Assembly (NCBI GenBank): GCA_038061935.1
Contig: JBBTYF010000040.1
Span: 1-37,975 of the forward strand
Source: Patescibacteria group bacterium
GTDB taxonomy: Bacteria > Patescibacteriota > Minisyncoccia > Minisyncoccales > MHMH01
DNA: 37,975 bases
Direction: 5' to 3'
Position numbers and translations under genes: made by a program. How positions within the stretch are numbered: position 1 is the first letter of the stretch; every line of letters begins with the position of its first letter. This document shows positions 27,747-33,716 of this stretch, piece after piece. The notes below the pieces were generated by a model, which did no database searches, was not told the DNA's origin, and worked only from the letters and a program-made list of their open reading frames with translations.

Positions 27747-28193
27747 ATGGAGGAAATAAAAAACAAAAGGGCCTCTTTCGACTACGAATTCTTGGAGAAC
27801 TTCGAGGCAGGCATGGTGCTTTCAGGAAATGAGGTAAAATCAATAAACTCAGGACACATGTCACTCGTCGGCTCTTATGTTGTTTTAAAGGGCGGCGAGG
27901 TTTGGCTGATTAACGCCAATGTCGCGCCCTACCAGCCTAAAAACACGCCCAAAGACTATGCCCCTACCCGATCAAGGAAACTCCTTTTAAAAAAGAAAGA
28001 AATCCAATATCTCTTTGGCAAATCCCAGGAAAGAGGCTTGACTTTAATACCATTGAGGGTATATAGTAATAAGGGTAAAATAAAGATAGAGTTCGCCGTA
28101 GCCCGAGGAAAGAAAAAAGCTGATAAGAAAGAATTGATCAAAAAAAGGGAAACCAGGAAGGAAGTTGAGAGAGAGTTAAAAATGCGGGGGTGA
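27747..28193 (+). CDS. smpB: SsrA-binding protein
   Basis: NKRASFDYEF, SGNEVKS, YQPKNT...R.RKLLL and a basic C-terminal tail. tmRNA is immediately adjacent. Confidence 0.93.
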   Translation: MEEIKNKRASFDYEFLENFEAGMVLSGNEVKSINSGHMSLVGSYVVLKGGEVWLINANVAPYQPKNTPKDYAPTRSRKLLLKKKEIQYLFGKSQERGLTLIPLRVYSNKGKIKIEFAVARGKKKADKKELIKKRETRKEVERELKMRG

Positions 28194-28541
28194 CAGGCTT
28201 CGACAGAGATCTTTTTTCAAAATCGGCAAATCCAGTATTCTGGAATCTGGCTAAACTTCCGGAAACCGAGATATGGCAACATATTTCAAAAACCTGTCCT
28301 CGCCTACGCTTAGTAAGCGGGACCATCCAACCTTAACTATTCTCGATAATAAGGATTGGGTGTCATAATCTCGAGATAGGCAGAATCGCTTCCGCTTCGA
28401 GCGGTTCTCCGAAAAGTTAGAAGCTAGAAATATCGGAATTTTGCCTGTTTTACATCCGATGTTTCGAAAATTAAAACAGACTAAATTTGTAGAGAGATTT
28501 TGATAATATTTCTGGACGGGACTTCAATGTCCCCACCTCCA
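28186..28541 (+). ncRNA. ssrA: tmRNA (transfer-messenger RNA)
   Basis: The 5' end GGGGGUGACAGGCUUCGACAG is canonical. The 3' end is GGACGGGACUUCAAUGUCCC-CACCUCC-A. Acceptor strand GGGGGUG pairs with CACCUCC and includes a G3:U alanine-identity pair. The likely tag ORF is GGC AAC ATA TTT CAA AAA CCT GTC CTC GCC TAC GCT TAG TAA (28275-28316), giving GNIFQKPVLAYA with a double stop in a small hairpin. CCA is not encoded: ACAC follows the stem. Confidence 0.88.
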
Positions 28542-28545
28542 CACC

Positions 28546-29686: not shown

Positions 29687-30187
29687 TTAGATATCCCTGA
29701 TTAATGAAACTTCGTTGCAATCATCAGGGAACCTTGAGCAGTTGATGCATTCCTGCCAAATTTTTTGGGGCAGATTAGACTTGCCGATTTTTTTAAAACC
29801 GCTGTTCTGAAAAAATTTTACGTTTTTCGGAGTAGTTAACATAAACAACTTATCTATTTCCATTTCCTTAGCTTCCCTAATACACTCTTTAACCAGCTGC
29901 GTACCGATACCTTTACCGCGTTCTTCTTTTAAGATAGCTAATGACCTTACTTCAGCTAAAACAGCCCCCTTGTGACCAGGTCGGTATTCCTTTCCTAAAA
30001 CATGAAGAGCGCAGCAGCCGATAACTTTATTTTCTTTTTCGGCAATAAAAAAATCCCTGATATTAGTATAAATCTCGTAAATAGGCCTAAGCAGCATAAC
30101 GCTCTCTTCGGCGTAAGTATCAATGGTTTTTTTTATTTTGGCTGCGTCGCTGATTTTAGCTTTTCGAAAAATAATCTTTGGCTTCAT
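29687..30187 (-). CDS. GNAT-family N-acetyltransferase (ArgA/COG1246-like)
   Basis: The acetyl-CoA motif RGKGIGTQLV is present. The C-terminus has a Cys-rich tail (QECINCSRFPDDC). I place the start at the ATG at 30187 (MKPKIIFRKA), which overlaps the polX TGA as ATGA. Confidence 0.8.
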   Translation of the reverse strand: MKPKIIFRKAKISDAAKIKKTIDTYAEESVMLLRPIYEIYTNIRDFFIAEKENKVIGCCALHVLGKEYRPGHKGAVLAEVRSLAILKEERGKGIGTQLVKECIREAKEMEIDKLFMLTTPKNVKFFQNSGFKKIGKSNLPQKIWQECINCSRFPDDCNEVSLIRDI

Positions 30188-31914
30188 TTTAAAAACTTTA
30201 ACATTTTCTGCAAAGAGTGGCAATTAATTACGTCGTTTTTCCCTGCCCAGCCCCGGCGCGCTTGGGCAATGCCGGGCCCTATCATTTTTAACTGACCCTT
30301 ATGATGGGCATCGGTATTAATCACTATTTTGACTTGAGCCTCTTTTGCCTTTCGGATATTTTGATCGTTAAGATCTAATCTCTCGGGCCAGGCGTTAACC
30401 TCTAAAACAGTGCCTGTTTCTTTAGCGGCTTTTAAAACTTTATCGAAGTCTATTTGATATTCGTCCCGCTTCTTTAAAATCCTGCCTGTGGGATGGGAAA
30501 TAATATCGACATTCGGATTTTTCATCGCCTGAATTAGGCGAGTAGTCATTCTGTCGCGCGGCATCTTAAAATTAGAGTGGATGCCTGCGATGACATAGTC
30601 TAATTTTTGGAGGACTTTGTCCTCGATATCAATTGATCCATCATTTAAAATATTCGCCTCGCAGCCTTTTAAAACGCGGAATTTTGATTTCTGTTTTTGG
30701 AATTTTAGATTAATCTTGTCGATTTCTTTATTCCGTCGTTCTAATTGCTTTTCGTTCAAACCGCGCTCAATTCTCAAAAACTTAGTGTGGTCGGCAATGC
30801 CTATATATTCATAACCCATATTCATGGCGGCTTGGGTCATCTCGGCGATAGAGTTAGTCCCGCCGTCCCAATCGGAATGAGCGTGCAGATCTCCCCGAAT
30901 ATCGCTGTAGCCGATGATTTGCGGCAATTTATGAGCTAAAGCAACTTCAACCTCGCCACGGTCTTCTCTCATCTCCGGCGGCACCCACGACATCCCTAAG
31001 GCCTTGTACACGTCTTCTTCGGTTTCACTCGCAATCATTTTTGGACCGCGGAATAAGCCGTATTCAGAAAGCTTCAGCCCCTTCCCCATGGCTATGCGCC
31101 TCGTTGCGATATTGTGCTCTTTCGAACCGGTAAAATACTGCAAGGCCGCGCCATAAACTTTTTTAGGCACCACTCGGATATCCATATCAAACCCCTCTCT
31201 GGTCCTCACCGAGGCCTTAGTGGTACCCTTGCCCCAGATTTTGACAACACCCGGCATAGAAACAAAAGAATCCATCACCAGCGATGGATTTTTAGCAATC
31301 ACCAAAAAATCAACATCGCCAATCGTTTCTTTCATCCTTCTTAAAGAACCGCAATAATCCACCCTTTCCACGCCCTTGATGGTTTTCAGTTTTTCGTAAA
31401 CTTCTGTGGCTTTGGGCAGAATCTCGTTCAATAAAAACCTTCCCTTGCTTCTTTTAACGAATTTAATGCCCTCGAGAATGTTTTTTTCCGTCTTTTCTCC
31501 GAACCCGAACAAAAGCGAGATTTTATGAGTTCTCGCCGCTTTTTCTAGAGTTTTCAAGTCTTTGACTCCCAGCCTTTGATAAAGAATTTTGGCGCGCTTT
31601 GGCCCTACGCCCTCAACCGCGCTGAGTTCTTGAAAATTAATCGGCGTTTTCTTTTTAAGGGCATCGTAATATTGCAGCTTCCCTGTTTTAAGATATTCCT
31701 CAATATGTTCAGCAATATTCTTGCCCACGCCTGATAATTCTTCTAGGGCTTTTTTACCGCCATTCTTGTAAACCTCTTCGATATCCTCCTCAAGCGTCTC
31801 TATGGTCAAGGCCGCTTTTTCATAAGCGTAGGGCTTGAAAGGAACCTCGTCCATCGCCAGGAAATTCGCTATCTCATAAAGAATTTTGGCGATCTCTTGG
31901 TTTTTCACCCCCAC
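30184..31914 (-). CDS. polX: Family X DNA polymerase with a C-terminal PHP domain
   Basis: N-terminal HhH/8-kDa domain (NQEIAKILYEIANFL), Pol-beta palm (GSLRRMKETIGDVDFLV) and PHP motifs (GDLHAHSDWDGG, ADH, NTDAHH). Only GTG starts are available (31914 or 31908). The ancestral ATG appears to be displaced; see the finding at 31904-32052. Confidence 0.9.
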   Translation of the reverse strand: MGVKNQEIAKILYEIANFLAMDEVPFKPYAYEKAALTIETLEEDIEEVYKNGGKKALEELSGVGKNIAEHIEEYLKTGKLQYYDALKKKTPINFQELSAVEGVGPKRAKILYQRLGVKDLKTLEKAARTHKISLLFGFGEKTEKNILEGIKFVKRSKGRFLLNEILPKATEVYEKLKTIKGVERVDYCGSLRRMKETIGDVDFLVIAKNPSLVMDSFVSMPGVVKIWGKGTTKASVRTREGFDMDIRVVPKKVYGAALQYFTGSKEHNIATRRIAMGKGLKLSEYGLFRGPKMIASETEEDVYKALGMSWVPPEMREDRGEVEVALAHKLPQIIGYSDIRGDLHAHSDWDGGTNSIAEMTQAAMNMGYEYIGIADHTKFLRIERGLNEKQLERRNKEIDKINLKFQKQKSKFRVLKGCEANILNDGSIDIEDKVLQKLDYVIAGIHSNFKMPRDRMTTRLIQAMKNPNVDIISHPTGRILKKRDEYQIDFDKVLKAAKETGTVLEVNAWPERLDLNDQNIRKAKEAQVKIVINTDAHHKGQLKMIGPGIAQARRGWAGKNDVINCHSLQKMLKFLK

Positions 31915-32048
31915 ACCAAACGAGTTTATATCTTAAAACTAAAATTAGTTTTTAGAATTTCGCTCGCTGTAATTAATTATTAATCTTTATCCCCGCAACT
32001 AATATTGTCTTTAAGATAATTTTAGTAAAACTCGCTATGGTGTGGGGG
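31908..32048. mobile_element. 141-nt MITE-like non-autonomous element
   Basis: Terminal inverted repeats are CCCCCACACCAAACGAG (31908-31924) and CTCGCTATGGTGTGGGGG (32031-32048). Both sides are flanked by TTCA (31904-31907 and 32049-32052). The interior is AT-rich and has no ORF of its own. Confidence 0.6.
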
Positions 32049-32057
32049 TTCATGTTT

Positions 32058-32681
32058 TTAGAAAGGTTTTTCCGAAGGTGGCAGGCGGGGCGCAAAATGG
32101 TCTTTGAGAAAAATGGCAGGGCGCATTAATAATAAGGCAGAGGAAGAAAGTAATCCAAAGAAACTGACTAGGATAAAGACAATGGGAAACCCGAAAATGC
32201 TAGCCAATAAAGCGCCGAAAGCTCCGGCAATGCCGGCGGCAAACCCGATGCCGGTGCTTTCCAAACTCCAAGAAAAGGCCTCTCGGCCCTTATCAATATG
32301 CCTGGTAAAAATGCCTGACCAGGTCGGGATGACGCAAGCCATACTCAAGCCCCTGATAAATTCCAGGGCAAAAATATGCCAAGGCAGGGTGGCAAAAACA
32401 TAGCCCAAAGGAATTAAATTGGCTATATACATCCCGACCACTAAAAATTTAAAATCGTCTATCTCGCCGTGATTTTTGTCTAACTGATGAGCAATGAAGG
32501 GCTGCGCGACTGATTTGGTAATCCAGTAGCTGGCCGCCACCAGGCCCACCATTTTTAAATTGCCGCCTTGGATTTGTTGGGTTAAAAAAATGGCGAAAAT
32601 CGGCGCCATTAAGCCCCAGCCCGATTGAAGCAAAAAATCTGAAGCGATTAAAACCTTGATAACCCGGTTGACATTAACCAT
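32058..32681 (-). CDS. Six-TM MFS-half-like membrane protein
   Basis: 207 aa with about 6 TM segments and a loop HQLDKNHGEIDD resembling MFS motif A. It is half the usual MFS size. Confidence 0.5.
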   Translation of the reverse strand: MVNVNRVIKVLIASDFLLQSGWGLMAPIFAIFLTQQIQGGNLKMVGLVAASYWITKSVAQPFIAHQLDKNHGEIDDFKFLVVGMYIANLIPLGYVFATLPWHIFALEFIRGLSMACVIPTWSGIFTRHIDKGREAFSWSLESTGIGFAAGIAGAFGALLASIFGFPIVFILVSFFGLLSSSALLLMRPAIFLKDHFAPRLPPSEKPF

Positions 32682-32699: not shown

Positions 32700-33716
32700 T
32701 TATTTGCCGATTAATCTTGCTATTCTTTTCAAGACGGCTGATTGCAGTATTTGAACGCCGAACTTAAAGAAAAAAACCGCGCCCAATAAAGCCAACGCCA
32801 ACTCAACCCCCCTGATGATAAAGACGAAAGCCATGGCAATATCCGTGCCCAAGCCCAAAGAATTGAAAATAAAAGATTGCACCGCCTCGTGGGAGCCTAG
32901 AGCGGCCGGGATGGGAATCAAGACCGCCAAGGAAGAAAAAGCGACGATGGAAACGATGGAAAAAACGCTTATTTCTTGGCCTAAAAATAAAAGCAGCAAG
33001 GAGGCTCTGCCCAGCAATATCAATTCGTGCAAAATACTTAAAGCAATGCCTTTCCACAGCGTCTTTCTATTTTTTAATGTAAAATATCTGAAGATTTCTT
33101 TCTCGACTTCAATCGCCGTATCTGCGCCGTTAAAATTTTTGGCGTTGAGTTTTTTAAGAAAAAAACGGATAATGCTTTCTTTCTTAATAATTTTAAAATA
33201 GAGGACGCCCAGTAAAACAACGATTAAAAGAGTGCCTAAAAAAACAATGAAATAAAATTTGGCCGGGATGAAAGCTACTTTTAGAATAAAAAACGCTATG
33301 CCGAAGGCGGCGGCCGCGATATAAACGGTGATTTCCAGGATTTTATCGATGATGACCGAGGCAATGGATTTAAACCAGGGAATGGCATATTTTTCTTTCA
33401 AATCGTAGCCTCTGAAGATTTCTCCTCCAAAAATCACCATAGGAAAGAAAAAAGCAATGGAAACGCCGGAAAGATAATATTCAAAAATCCTTAAAAGAGG
33501 AACATGATATTGCTGGCTTTTTAAAATGGTCCCCCACCGATAAGACCTGACCAGGGCCGACAAAACAGTTAAAAGTAAAATCAGCAAGCCGGCTTGAAAA
33601 GAAAAACGCCCGAGCGCCAATTTGATGTTCTCCCACCCCACGTGGTTGAGAATCCACCCGAAAAGCGCCAGGCCCACCAAAAGAGAAAACAAAAAAAACA
33701 GAACTCTTTTTATCAT
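32700..33716 (-). CDS. UPF0104 / lysyl-phosphatidylglycerol-synthase-TM-like (flippase-like) membrane protein
   Basis: 338 aa with about 8 TM segments. It has a family-typical N-terminus (W..I...L......L...LL....S.L.RS.RW..IL). Confidence 0.65.
   Translation of the reverse strand: MIKRVLFFLFSLLVGLALFGWILNHVGWENIKLALGRFSFQAGLLILLLTVLSALVRSYRWGTILKSQQYHVPLLRIFEYYLSGVSIAFFFPMVIFGGEIFRGYDLKEKYAIPWFKSIASVIIDKILEITVYIAAAAFGIAFFILKVAFIPAKFYFIVFLGTLLIVVLLGVLYFKIIKKESIIRFFLKKLNAKNFNGADTAIEVEKEIFRYFTLKNRKTLWKGIALSILHELILLGRASLLLLFLGQEISVFSIVSIVAFSSLAVLIPIPAALGSHEAVQSFIFNSLGLGTDIAMAFVFIIRGVELALALLGAVFFFKFGVQILQSAVLKRIARLIGK

Follow-up and report, generated by a model that had tools for sequence, protein, structure and literature searches.

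Position of the element at the start of polX

The stretch analysed here (hereafter the window) comprises 37,975 nucleotides of a Patescibacteria group bacterium (contig JBBTYF010000040.1); it carries a bacterial tmRNA (28186-28544), has ~41% GC, and its densely packed genes lie nearly all on the minus strand. Within it, polX, which encodes a family-X DNA polymerase, is parted from the gene upstream by a 141-nt element that is bounded by terminal inverted repeats (TIRs) and flanked on both sides by TTCA. We argue that this is very probably a member of a family of miniature transposable elements with inverted repeats (MITEs) spread across the candidate phyla radiation (CPR), inserted at a TGAA in the polX start, and that an unchanged PolX would now be initiated at a GTG, its expression altered but not abolished. 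The features of the locus are:

31908-32048, minus strand (sense, co-directional with polX): MITE-like non-coding element of 141 nt with termini CCCCCACACCA/TGGTGTGGGGG
31908-31928: gene-proximal TIR, minus-strand reading ...ATAAACTCGTTTGGTGTGGGGG, made of an outer 11 nt followed by an inner ~10 nt
32028-32048: gene-distal TIR, minus-strand reading CCCCCACACCATAGCGAGTTT
31904-31907: target-site duplication (TSD), polX side, TTCA on the plus strand and TGAA on the gene strand
32049-32052: TSD, upstream copy, TTCA on the plus strand, belonging to the orphaned ATGAA
31973-32053, minus strand: orphaned ancestral ATG (32053-32051) and its 26-codon open reading frame (ORF), stop at 31975-31973
30184-31908, minus strand: polX, family-X DNA polymerase with PHP domain, intact, matched in Pfam and at NCBI
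31906-31908, minus strand: putative regenerated start GTG, the last G of the element plus the TG of the duplicated TGAA
31912-31914, minus strand: alternative in-frame GTG inside the terminus, giving a 576-aa product that begins M-G-V-KNQEI
32058-32681, minus strand: half-MFS transporter gene (207 aa, by Pfam), whose stop, TAA, is 4 nt upstream of the orphaned ATG
29687-30187, minus strand: GNAT acetyltransferase, whose ATG overlaps the polX stop (ATGA); the frame scanned with Pfam was 29687-30223
32700-33716: LPG-synthase-type membrane protein, by Pfam

An earlier note on this DNA had described the inverted repeats, the TTCA duplication, the 26-codon ORF and the in-frame GTGs, and on re-reading of the window each of them was found again, with all coordinates and sequence statements correct. 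On the plus strand the two ends read CCCCCACACCAAACGAG (31908-31924) and CTCGCTATGGTGTGGGGG (32031-32048), with the terminal 11 nt perfectly complementary; a repeat finder returned a perfect inverted repeat of 12 nt rather than 11 (31907-31918 and 32038-32049), since the innermost bases of the two flanking 4-mers pair too. Past the perfect part there is a 1-nt bulge and then a CGAG/CTCG block, to a total of ~21 nt with one bulge. Read on the minus strand, positions 31890-32065 give ...CCTTTC TAA aaac ATGAA·CCCCCACACCATAGCGAG...(interior)...CTCGTTTGGTGTGGGGG·TGAAAAACCAAGAGATCGCC, where raised dots mark the element edges, or more briefly TAA aaac ATGAA·CCCCC...GGGGG·TGAAAAACCAAGAG. Removing the element and one TGAA in silico yields TAAaaacATGAAAAAC, the ancestral junction between the MFS stop and the polX start (as a string, TAAAAACATGAAAAACC), and the sequence then runs TAAaaacATGAAAAACCAAGAG, translated as MKNQEIAK (TAAaaacATGAAAAACCAAGAGATCGCC encoding MKNQEIA). 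Apart from the 26 codons that are read in from the orphaned ATG (product MNPHTIASFTKIILKTILVAGIKINN), the 141 nt have no coding capacity; the frame of these codons crosses the distal terminus and ends within the element, and in the ORF table it forms part of a 40-codon frame, 32095-31973, that includes the orphaned ATG at 32053.

The polX ORF itself is full length, with no frameshift and with all domains kept: Pfam recognised HHH_8, thumb and PHP domains of a family-X polymerase in 30184-31914. The identical 574-aa protein is named 'DNA polymerase/3'-5' exonuclease PolX [Patescibacteria group bacterium]' at NCBI (P0001), in an annotation that uses the GTG at 31908-31906, which gives the native N-terminus MKNQEI. 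Gene callers other than that of NCBI pick the GTG at 31914 (576 aa).

The earlier note had also proposed that the paired TIRs bury these GTGs, and RNA folding bore this out. The 176-nt minus-strand RNA folds at -50.8 kcal/mol (z = -6.46, none of 200 shuffles being equally stable), the termini forming a basal stem of ~21 bp in which the G-rich tract is paired, together with the leading GT of the polX GTG.

Orthologous sites and independent assemblies

PolX orthologues do not start upstream of MKNQEI but at M-(K/V/R)-N-Q-E (MKNQE/MVNQE), as the proposed ancestral start implies, and most are 574 aa long. The empty site that the earlier note suggested looking for in relatives was found in three of them. 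The locus L099 (PolX 82% identical) has the empty site CCGTTTTAAaatATGAAAAATCAAGAA, reading CCG TTT TAA aat ATG AAA AAT CAA GAA, within the same gene order as in the window (DUF1858, LPG synthase, MFS, PolX, GNAT); L102 (85%) has CCTTTTTAAgaatATGAAGAACCAAGAG, reading CCT TTT TAA gaat ATG AAG AAC CAA GAG; and the MFS/polX site is also empty in L103 (83%). Thus the junction in the closest relatives measures 3-4 nt with no spacer, and no conserved, covarying leader was seen in them. Together with the duplications and the multi-copy family described below, these empty sites support the insertion of a small non-autonomous element into the polX start. The earlier note had called the insertion recent, and this holds in part: the element is absent from lineages ~15% diverged in PolX, but it looks fixed in the sampled population, with no empty allele found.

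Exact-protein look-ups retrieved contigs from several Hainich groundwater samples that carry the locus. Both junctions are spanned, identically to the window, in L126 (42.9 kb, 15x) and L127 (24 kb), while the Logan contigs L001 and L128 cover one side each, with a 30-nt (k-1) overlap inside the element. An assembly chimera can thus be discounted for the polX insertion, which appears fixed in the population sampled. We considered whether the contig breaks at the element could be a sign of polymorphism and rejected this, as the Logan overlap of 30 nt is simply k-1 and the site is crossed by long ENA contigs. An overlap of k-1 within the element hints at a repeat; the 38 kb of the window hold one copy.

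Two further relatives show other changes at the same place. In L101 (2431-2520; ENA ERZ28564339, PolX 84% identical) the MFS/polX junction holds a different insertion of ~62 nt, in which two copies of the opening 19 nt of polX (ATGAAAAATCAAGAGTTGG / ATGAGGAATCAAGAACTGG) flank a GC-rich hairpin (CCCGCC...GGCGGG), a second and independent rearrangement at the polX start codon. In L100 (1136-2504; JGI 3300025308, PolX 81% identical) a reverse transcriptase (RVT_1) lies upstream of polX beside a bAvd-like gene; such a pair marks a diversity-generating retroelement, and here it stands in place of the MFS gene.

A family of short elements and the sites it occupies

A search of species-representative genomes, one for each species, with the pattern CCCCCACACCA-N(105-135)-TGGTGTGGGGG returned 95 stretches with paired termini, nearly all in metagenome-assembled genomes of Patescibacteria, where ~1 match would be expected by chance (estimated for 596 Gb, with 22 bases specified and 31 gap lengths allowed). 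Hosts are labelled Saccharibacteria, Parcubacteria/Paceibacterota, Doudna-, Kaiser-, Nealson- and Staskawicz-bacteria, among others, and single genomes hold at least eight copies (JBBTXB01, H14-bin029_1) or at least five (CAYNVZ01), CAZDOL01 also being copy-rich. Viral contigs gave no paired-termini match. Family statistics were drawn from 98 copies, and flanks could be assessed for 96, of which 56 have exact 4-bp repeats, as against 0-4 of 96 at eight shifted control offsets; the further copies with 4-bp duplications for which the earlier note proposed a search do exist. With up to one mismatch allowed the count rises to 74/96, while 5-bp repeats occur in 3/96 and 6-bp repeats in 0/96. The duplicated 4-mers are mostly TAAA/TTTA (20), CAAG/CTTG (13), TGAA/TTCA (11) and TCAA/TTGA (4), a Y-W-W-R preference.

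The outer 11 nt of the TIRs are invariant across the family by design of the search, and the inner ~10 nt of each TIR co-vary with the opposite arm. Complementarity of the arms extends over ~20 nt family-wide, positions 12-20 being alike within copies and unlike between them (mean arm score 4.6 within vs -1.6 between), which is what co-evolving transposase-binding TIRs would give. A whole-length hairpin was considered as a family-wide feature and rejected, since complementarity past ~26 nt barely exceeds the between-copy background. Members measure ~60-320 nt, with clusters at ~60-80 and ~120-150 nt and one non-coding member of 316 nt (L052), and across the wider family their interiors are heterogeneous. 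Alignment of the subfamily revealed asymmetric conserved interior motifs near the gene, namely TGTGRGGG, AACGAGTGAAA, a small hairpin and ATAAACTCG. At six loci (L004, L012, L032, L053, L057, L095) two ~70-nt members stand head-to-tail with only a 4-mer between them (for example ...GGTGTGGGGG TTGA CCCCCACACC...), and the interior motifs of the ~140-nt forms look like the decayed inner termini of such a tandem pair.

Transposition in trans is inferred from footprints alone, as no autonomous element was found in the fetched loci or in viral contigs. The long terminus pairs in the fetched loci that could have been an autonomous partner proved to be unrelated ends (L040, whose interior ORF we took to be rRNA antisense), adjacent small copies, or L052. 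When 536 ORFs near copies were clustered all-vs-all, the only families were housekeeping ones and, in 3 loci, a XerC/D-like recombinase, with no recurrent transposase-like family among them.

Copies avoid the interior of genes. After in-silico excision a long open frame crosses the site in 14/76 copies (18%), compared with 1084/1520 (71%) random positions in the same loci; the family is thus depleted from ORF interiors, which argues against removal at the RNA level. Where the duplication is TTTA/TAAA, the stop of the incoming gene is often the first three flank bases (stop at -4, ~11 copies). With TGAA on the gene side, start codons can be split: at least 13 copies other than that of the window divide the starts of unrelated genes in the same way, ATGAA·element·TGAA being present in at least nine copies and five more showing G·TGAA followed by a long ORF. 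In products initiated at this GTG, Pfam domains begin from residues 1-4 (Epimerase, YceG, TIM, RNase H, FtsH, FtsW/RodA, NIF3, Mur ligase, L35, YidD). Hence what happened at polX is one case of a recurrent outcome, in which the last G of the element and the duplicated TG remake a start at the native position. An upstream gene that terminates in an overlapping ATGA keeps its stop in the left TSD copy. An apparent start-codon case at L055 ('L24') was dropped because the ORF from its GTG is only 33 aa long.

Five copies have unequal flanking 4-mers, such as TTCA·element·TGAA (L091 2931-3067, L094 6347-6484, L089 3884-4026, L066 4296-4424, L023 7656-7793), and their right flank still yields G·TGAA at the native N-terminus (FtsW/RodA, Mur ligase, NIF3). 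The genes at these loci have no ATG and their start rests on the element's G; the chimeric flanks suggest recombination between copies.

Start-codon copies also share one orientation, and the minus-strand, sense orientation of the window element is the one common to all of them. All 13 of the other start-codon copies fit the window interior better in the same gene-relative orientation than flipped (probability about 1e-4 under random orientation), and comparison of all pairs gave 85 vs 5. When a 41-member cluster was oriented by signed similarity, the TSDs TGAA and TAAA divided 9:0 and 7:2. Restored loci contain 112 TGAA sites at ATGAA gene starts, 1,880 in other non-coding sequence and 5,162 in coding sequence (crude gene calls), and of the 18 TGAA-flanked copies about 14 are at starts, though ATGAA starts make up only ~6% of non-coding TGAA sites.

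A further class of sites lies in tRNA genes. Six copies in the genome scan contain a whole tRNA, five of them a tRNA-Gly(CCC) and one a tRNA-Val(CAC), and all six are in tRNA sequence. The copies carrying tRNA-Gly(CCC) are:

L009, 5166-5298
L027, 2261-2392
L071, 7168-7299
L080, 2021-2148
L068, 4630-4760

These lie inside the anticodon loop/stem of a resident tRNA-Gly(CCC), after C36-A37-A38-G39, with TSD CAAG and with the cargo tRNA pointing the same way as the resident. In-silico excision restores an intact resident tRNA in L009, L027 and L071, whereas the restored resident reads CTC in L080 and its 5' half is degenerate in L068. A metagenome scan for the junction TTCCCAAG·CCCCCACACCA returned 22 loci, 7 of them chance matches and 15 with a tRNA-in-tRNA architecture:

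L104, L105, L108-L113, L115-L120, L124: metagenome loci with copies carrying tRNA-Gly(CCC)

All 15 carry tRNA-Gly(CCC) cargo, co-oriented with the resident except in the nested L111. The resident halves are intact in L109, L115, L116 and L119 and degenerate in L108, L118 and L124, and the right terminus is lost in L104, L105 and L110; on their sequences, these loci appear to form a decay series in which a tRNA gene is replaced by a transposon-borne copy. In L111 (element at 80-321 of the oriented segment) the tRNA inside the CCCCCACACCA element is reversed and is itself split in the anticodon loop by an element of a different hairpin TIR family, TCCCGTTAGATAA...TTATCTAACGGGA, which carries a tRNA-Gly(CCC). 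At least one second TIR family would thus behave likewise, in a nested tRNA-in-tRNA-in-tRNA.

The copy with tRNA-Val(CAC) cargo (L056, 1438-1568) has the 3' half of a tRNA as its right flank, and its resident gene cannot be reconstructed because the flanking 4-mers do not match (TTCA / CAAG). Another copy (L037, 5289-5427) adjoins the 3' end of a tRNA-Val(GAC), with TSD TGGG/CCCA, i.e., the discriminator/CCA end. CAAG/CTTG insertions at L046 (5917-6051), L048 (3380-3514) and L092 (5211-5342) occupy the 3' side of the loop in a small hairpin (...CAA·G-stem). This geometry is shared with the sites in tRNA anticodon arms and hints at a structural component in target choice.

Initiation of PolX, alternative readings and known systems

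Next to the observed termini, duplication, multi-copy family, empty orthologous sites and depletion from ORF interiors, we propose the following course of events. The element would have entered A·TGAA·AAAC, with TGAA duplicated as by a DNA transposase that makes 4-bp staggered cuts. The upstream copy would retain ATGAA as a decoy start, opening the 26-codon ORF that enters the element, and the downstream copy would join the terminal G as G·TGAA, with a GTG at the native first codon. As that GTG stands exactly at this codon, the PolX protein would be unchanged if GTG 31908-31906 is used, and initiation presumably now takes place there.

The context of this start is unusual for the genome. Among 31 window genes examined, 27 start with ATG, 3 with TTG and one, polX, with GTG; their leaders are A/T-rich and unstructured, frequently with the start 2-5 nt past, or overlapping, the preceding stop, and almost none has a Shine-Dalgarno-like motif at a plausible distance, a pattern consistent with Shine-Dalgarno-independent, coupling-based initiation in this lineage. 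Only polX has a G-rich tract upstream, its GTG being preceded by ...CGTTTGGTGTGGGG. Unlike these leaders, GTG and tract are predicted to be buried in the ~21-bp stem, and therefore initiation probably requires the stem to open. The most likely route, in our analysis, is unmasking by upstream translation: ribosomes starting from the orphaned ATG, 4 nt past the MFS stop, would read through the 5' arm and so free the 3' arm and the GTG. The analogy is with classical translational coupling by hairpin melting. Alternatively, the stem could be cleaved, e.g., by RNase III. By either route PolX expression would be altered and still coupled to upstream translation, but not abolished. That other genomes keep this architecture at genes which are normally essential points to adequate initiation, and it tempers the suggestion of the earlier note that PolX may be poorly translated.

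Several points weigh against this interpretation. The window holds no second copy of the element beyond chance at up to 2 mismatches. The empty allele of the exact window site had no match in JGI metagenomes, a weak point because the closest PolX there is ~82% identical and the collection appears to be without the window species. Neither 0.7 Mb of flanking loci nor viral contigs yielded a transposase or an autonomous element that has these termini, whole genomes not having been scanned for elements of 1-2 kb. The mechanism of initiation is reconstructed wholly by reasoning from sequence and fold. Finally, passive and tolerated insertion explains neither the uniform orientation of the 14 start-codon copies nor the excess of TGAA-flanked copies at start codons; start-context targeting, strand-specific integration or a benefit from element-borne signals are possible causes.

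The CCCCCACACCA elements may be an undescribed, CPR-wide class of 'damage-compensating' mini-transposons and no ordinary MITEs, homing in one orientation on places where their ends and the 4-bp duplication rebuild what they damage, an extension that we put forward tentatively and with less than even confidence. In this scheme G·TGAA may remake the start, TAAA may double the stop, and tRNA-Gly(CCC) cargo may make the element impossible to lose. Were it true, the polX copy would be a functional, selected 5' module and no scar.

A related reading, which we hold possible but on balance unlikely, takes the element for an orientation-dependent expression module aimed at start contexts, which would place polX under element-encoded control by supplying initiation signals: the start-codon G, a standby or ribosome-binding-site (RBS)-like tract, a processing stem or an outward promoter. 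It draws on the shared orientation, the asymmetry of the oriented TSDs and the start-codon excess, on the asymmetric motifs (AACGAGTGAAA, the small hairpin and ATAAACTCG) conserved beside the gene, and on the five copies without an upstream ATG, where the gene relies wholly on the element's G·TG. However, a sigma-70 consensus scan of the element found no promoter; the last 11 nt before the GTG, and nearly the last 21, are the same either way round, so that the bias must have more behind it than an RBS effect. Integration that is strand-specific with respect to replication could produce it instead, the genes being strongly co-oriented, and interiors vary across the wider family.

It is improbable, in our judgement, that the insertion effectively silenced polX, and possibly the coupled GNAT gene, so that the intact ORF would merely reflect recency in a future pseudogene. 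The GTG start, the structured G-rich leader and the lost native coupling distance would fit silencing in a genome that prefers ATG after A/T-rich leaders, and PolX is not universally essential. But the full-length ORF with all its domains, the identical and apparently fixed insertion across several samples, and the same architecture at FtsH, FtsW/RodA, Mur ligase, TIM, L35 and YidD, genes that could not be silent, speak against it.

We regard as very improbable that the element is intron-like and cut from the RNA, its stem joining the TGAA repeats and excision restoring AUGAAAAAC. Its essential locations (start codons and tRNA anticodon loops), the strong terminal stem and the bias to sense orientation could suggest this, and in five copies plain deletion of the element joins A and TGAA into ATGAA. 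A spliced element could occupy any position, however, and this family is depleted within ORFs. The window is bacterial, and Rfam gave no group I/II intron or other family at gathering or at E<=10, only sub-threshold plant miRNA precursor hairpins. Judged from the sequences, the junction at tRNA sites is a continuous stem with a 7x2 internal loop and no bulge-helix-bulge; copies inserted in tRNAs bring a replacement tRNA, and the resident halves decay in several genomes, neither of which one would expect of a resident gene restored by splicing. The boundaries are inconsistent as well, since copies with a TSD need the element plus 4 nt removed and the five others the element only.

That the 141 nt are a dedicated, lineage-specific structured leader of polX, attenuator- or riboswitch-like, is barely conceivable despite the very stable fold (z = -6.5) exactly between polX and its coupled upstream gene, given the 3-4-nt junction without a spacer in the closest relatives, the same termini around ~100 elements at unrelated loci with 4-bp duplications, and the lack of an Rfam match.

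Mobile DNA is considered scarce in the tiny, gene-dense genomes of CPR/Patescibacteria. The mini-transposon family described here spans many of their lineages and appears to persist at sites that spare genes, namely start and stop codons and tRNA genes for which a spare is carried. It may be one way in which operons of uncultivated bacteria are rewired, and it matters for annotation, as genes split by its members get mis-started or called truncated (PolX is 574 or 576 aa depending on the pipeline). The family also provides a natural experiment on initiation in organisms without Shine-Dalgarno signals, an ATG with an A/T-rich leader having given way to a GTG buried in a 21-bp stem, and the 14/14 orientation bias and the start-codon excess are directly testable.

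The MITE class itself is already known; what appears to be undescribed is this family, with its geometry of rebuilding start and stop codons, its orientation bias and its tRNA-replacing members. Full-text literature searches found neither these termini nor any MITE from the CPR described, and a 2024 prokaryote-wide MITE survey does not mention Patescibacteria. Like the prokaryotic MITEs Correia (CREE, from Neisseria), RUP, ERIC and Nezha (reviewed in PMC3184786), members of the CCCCCACACCA family are non-coding elements of ~100-150 bp with TIRs, fixed-length TSDs and many copies, with filled and empty orthologous sites, and with stable RNA stem-loops on co-transcription. Unlike these, the family has Patescibacteria hosts, termini of its own, a 4-bp Y-W-W-R TSD and no known parent insertion sequence (IS), and it recurs within start and stop codons, where its terminal G rebuilds the start. 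The Correia duplication is TA; identity with that element was ruled out by the different termini, the 4-bp TSD and the Patescibacteria hosts. Among IS that might be parents of the family, the IS5 group, IS701 and IS1380 make 4-bp TSDs, IS1380 ends begin with CC, and IS5 and IS701 prefer YTAR-type targets, whereas the targets here (TTTA, CTTG, TTCA, TTGA) are not YTAR. Rickettsia palindromic elements are reportedly small palindromic mobile elements tolerated in genes of reduced genomes. They are translated in-frame inside ORFs, whereas the CCCCCACACCA family is found at gene boundaries and is under-represented within ORFs.

Some prokaryotic MITEs affect the expression of the adjacent gene, the Correia element having promoters and an IHF site, and Neisseria REP2 and Borrelia IR repeats hold a promoter, an RBS and an ATG for the downstream ORF (PMC3184786). 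These repeats and the CCCCCACACCA elements are alike as small repeats that give start signals to a downstream ORF, but REP2 and IR bring a complete RBS and ATG, whereas the CCCCCACACCA element brings one base, the G, with the rest of the codon coming from the duplicated target, and the native N-terminus is therefore preserved exactly. For the tRNA-carrying members, as distinct from the window copy, the conceptual parallel is phage tRNA-dependent lysogeny (Guerrero-Bustamante & Hatfull 2024, PMC10865867). The phage system involves a ~50-kb genome, a tyrosine integrase and attP/attB (PMC10865867), whereas these members are 100-240 nt long, TIR-bounded, flanked by a 4-bp duplication and sited in the anticodon loop/stem, with a tRNA as their sole cargo; they resemble a minimal, transposon-sized analogue of that lysogeny.

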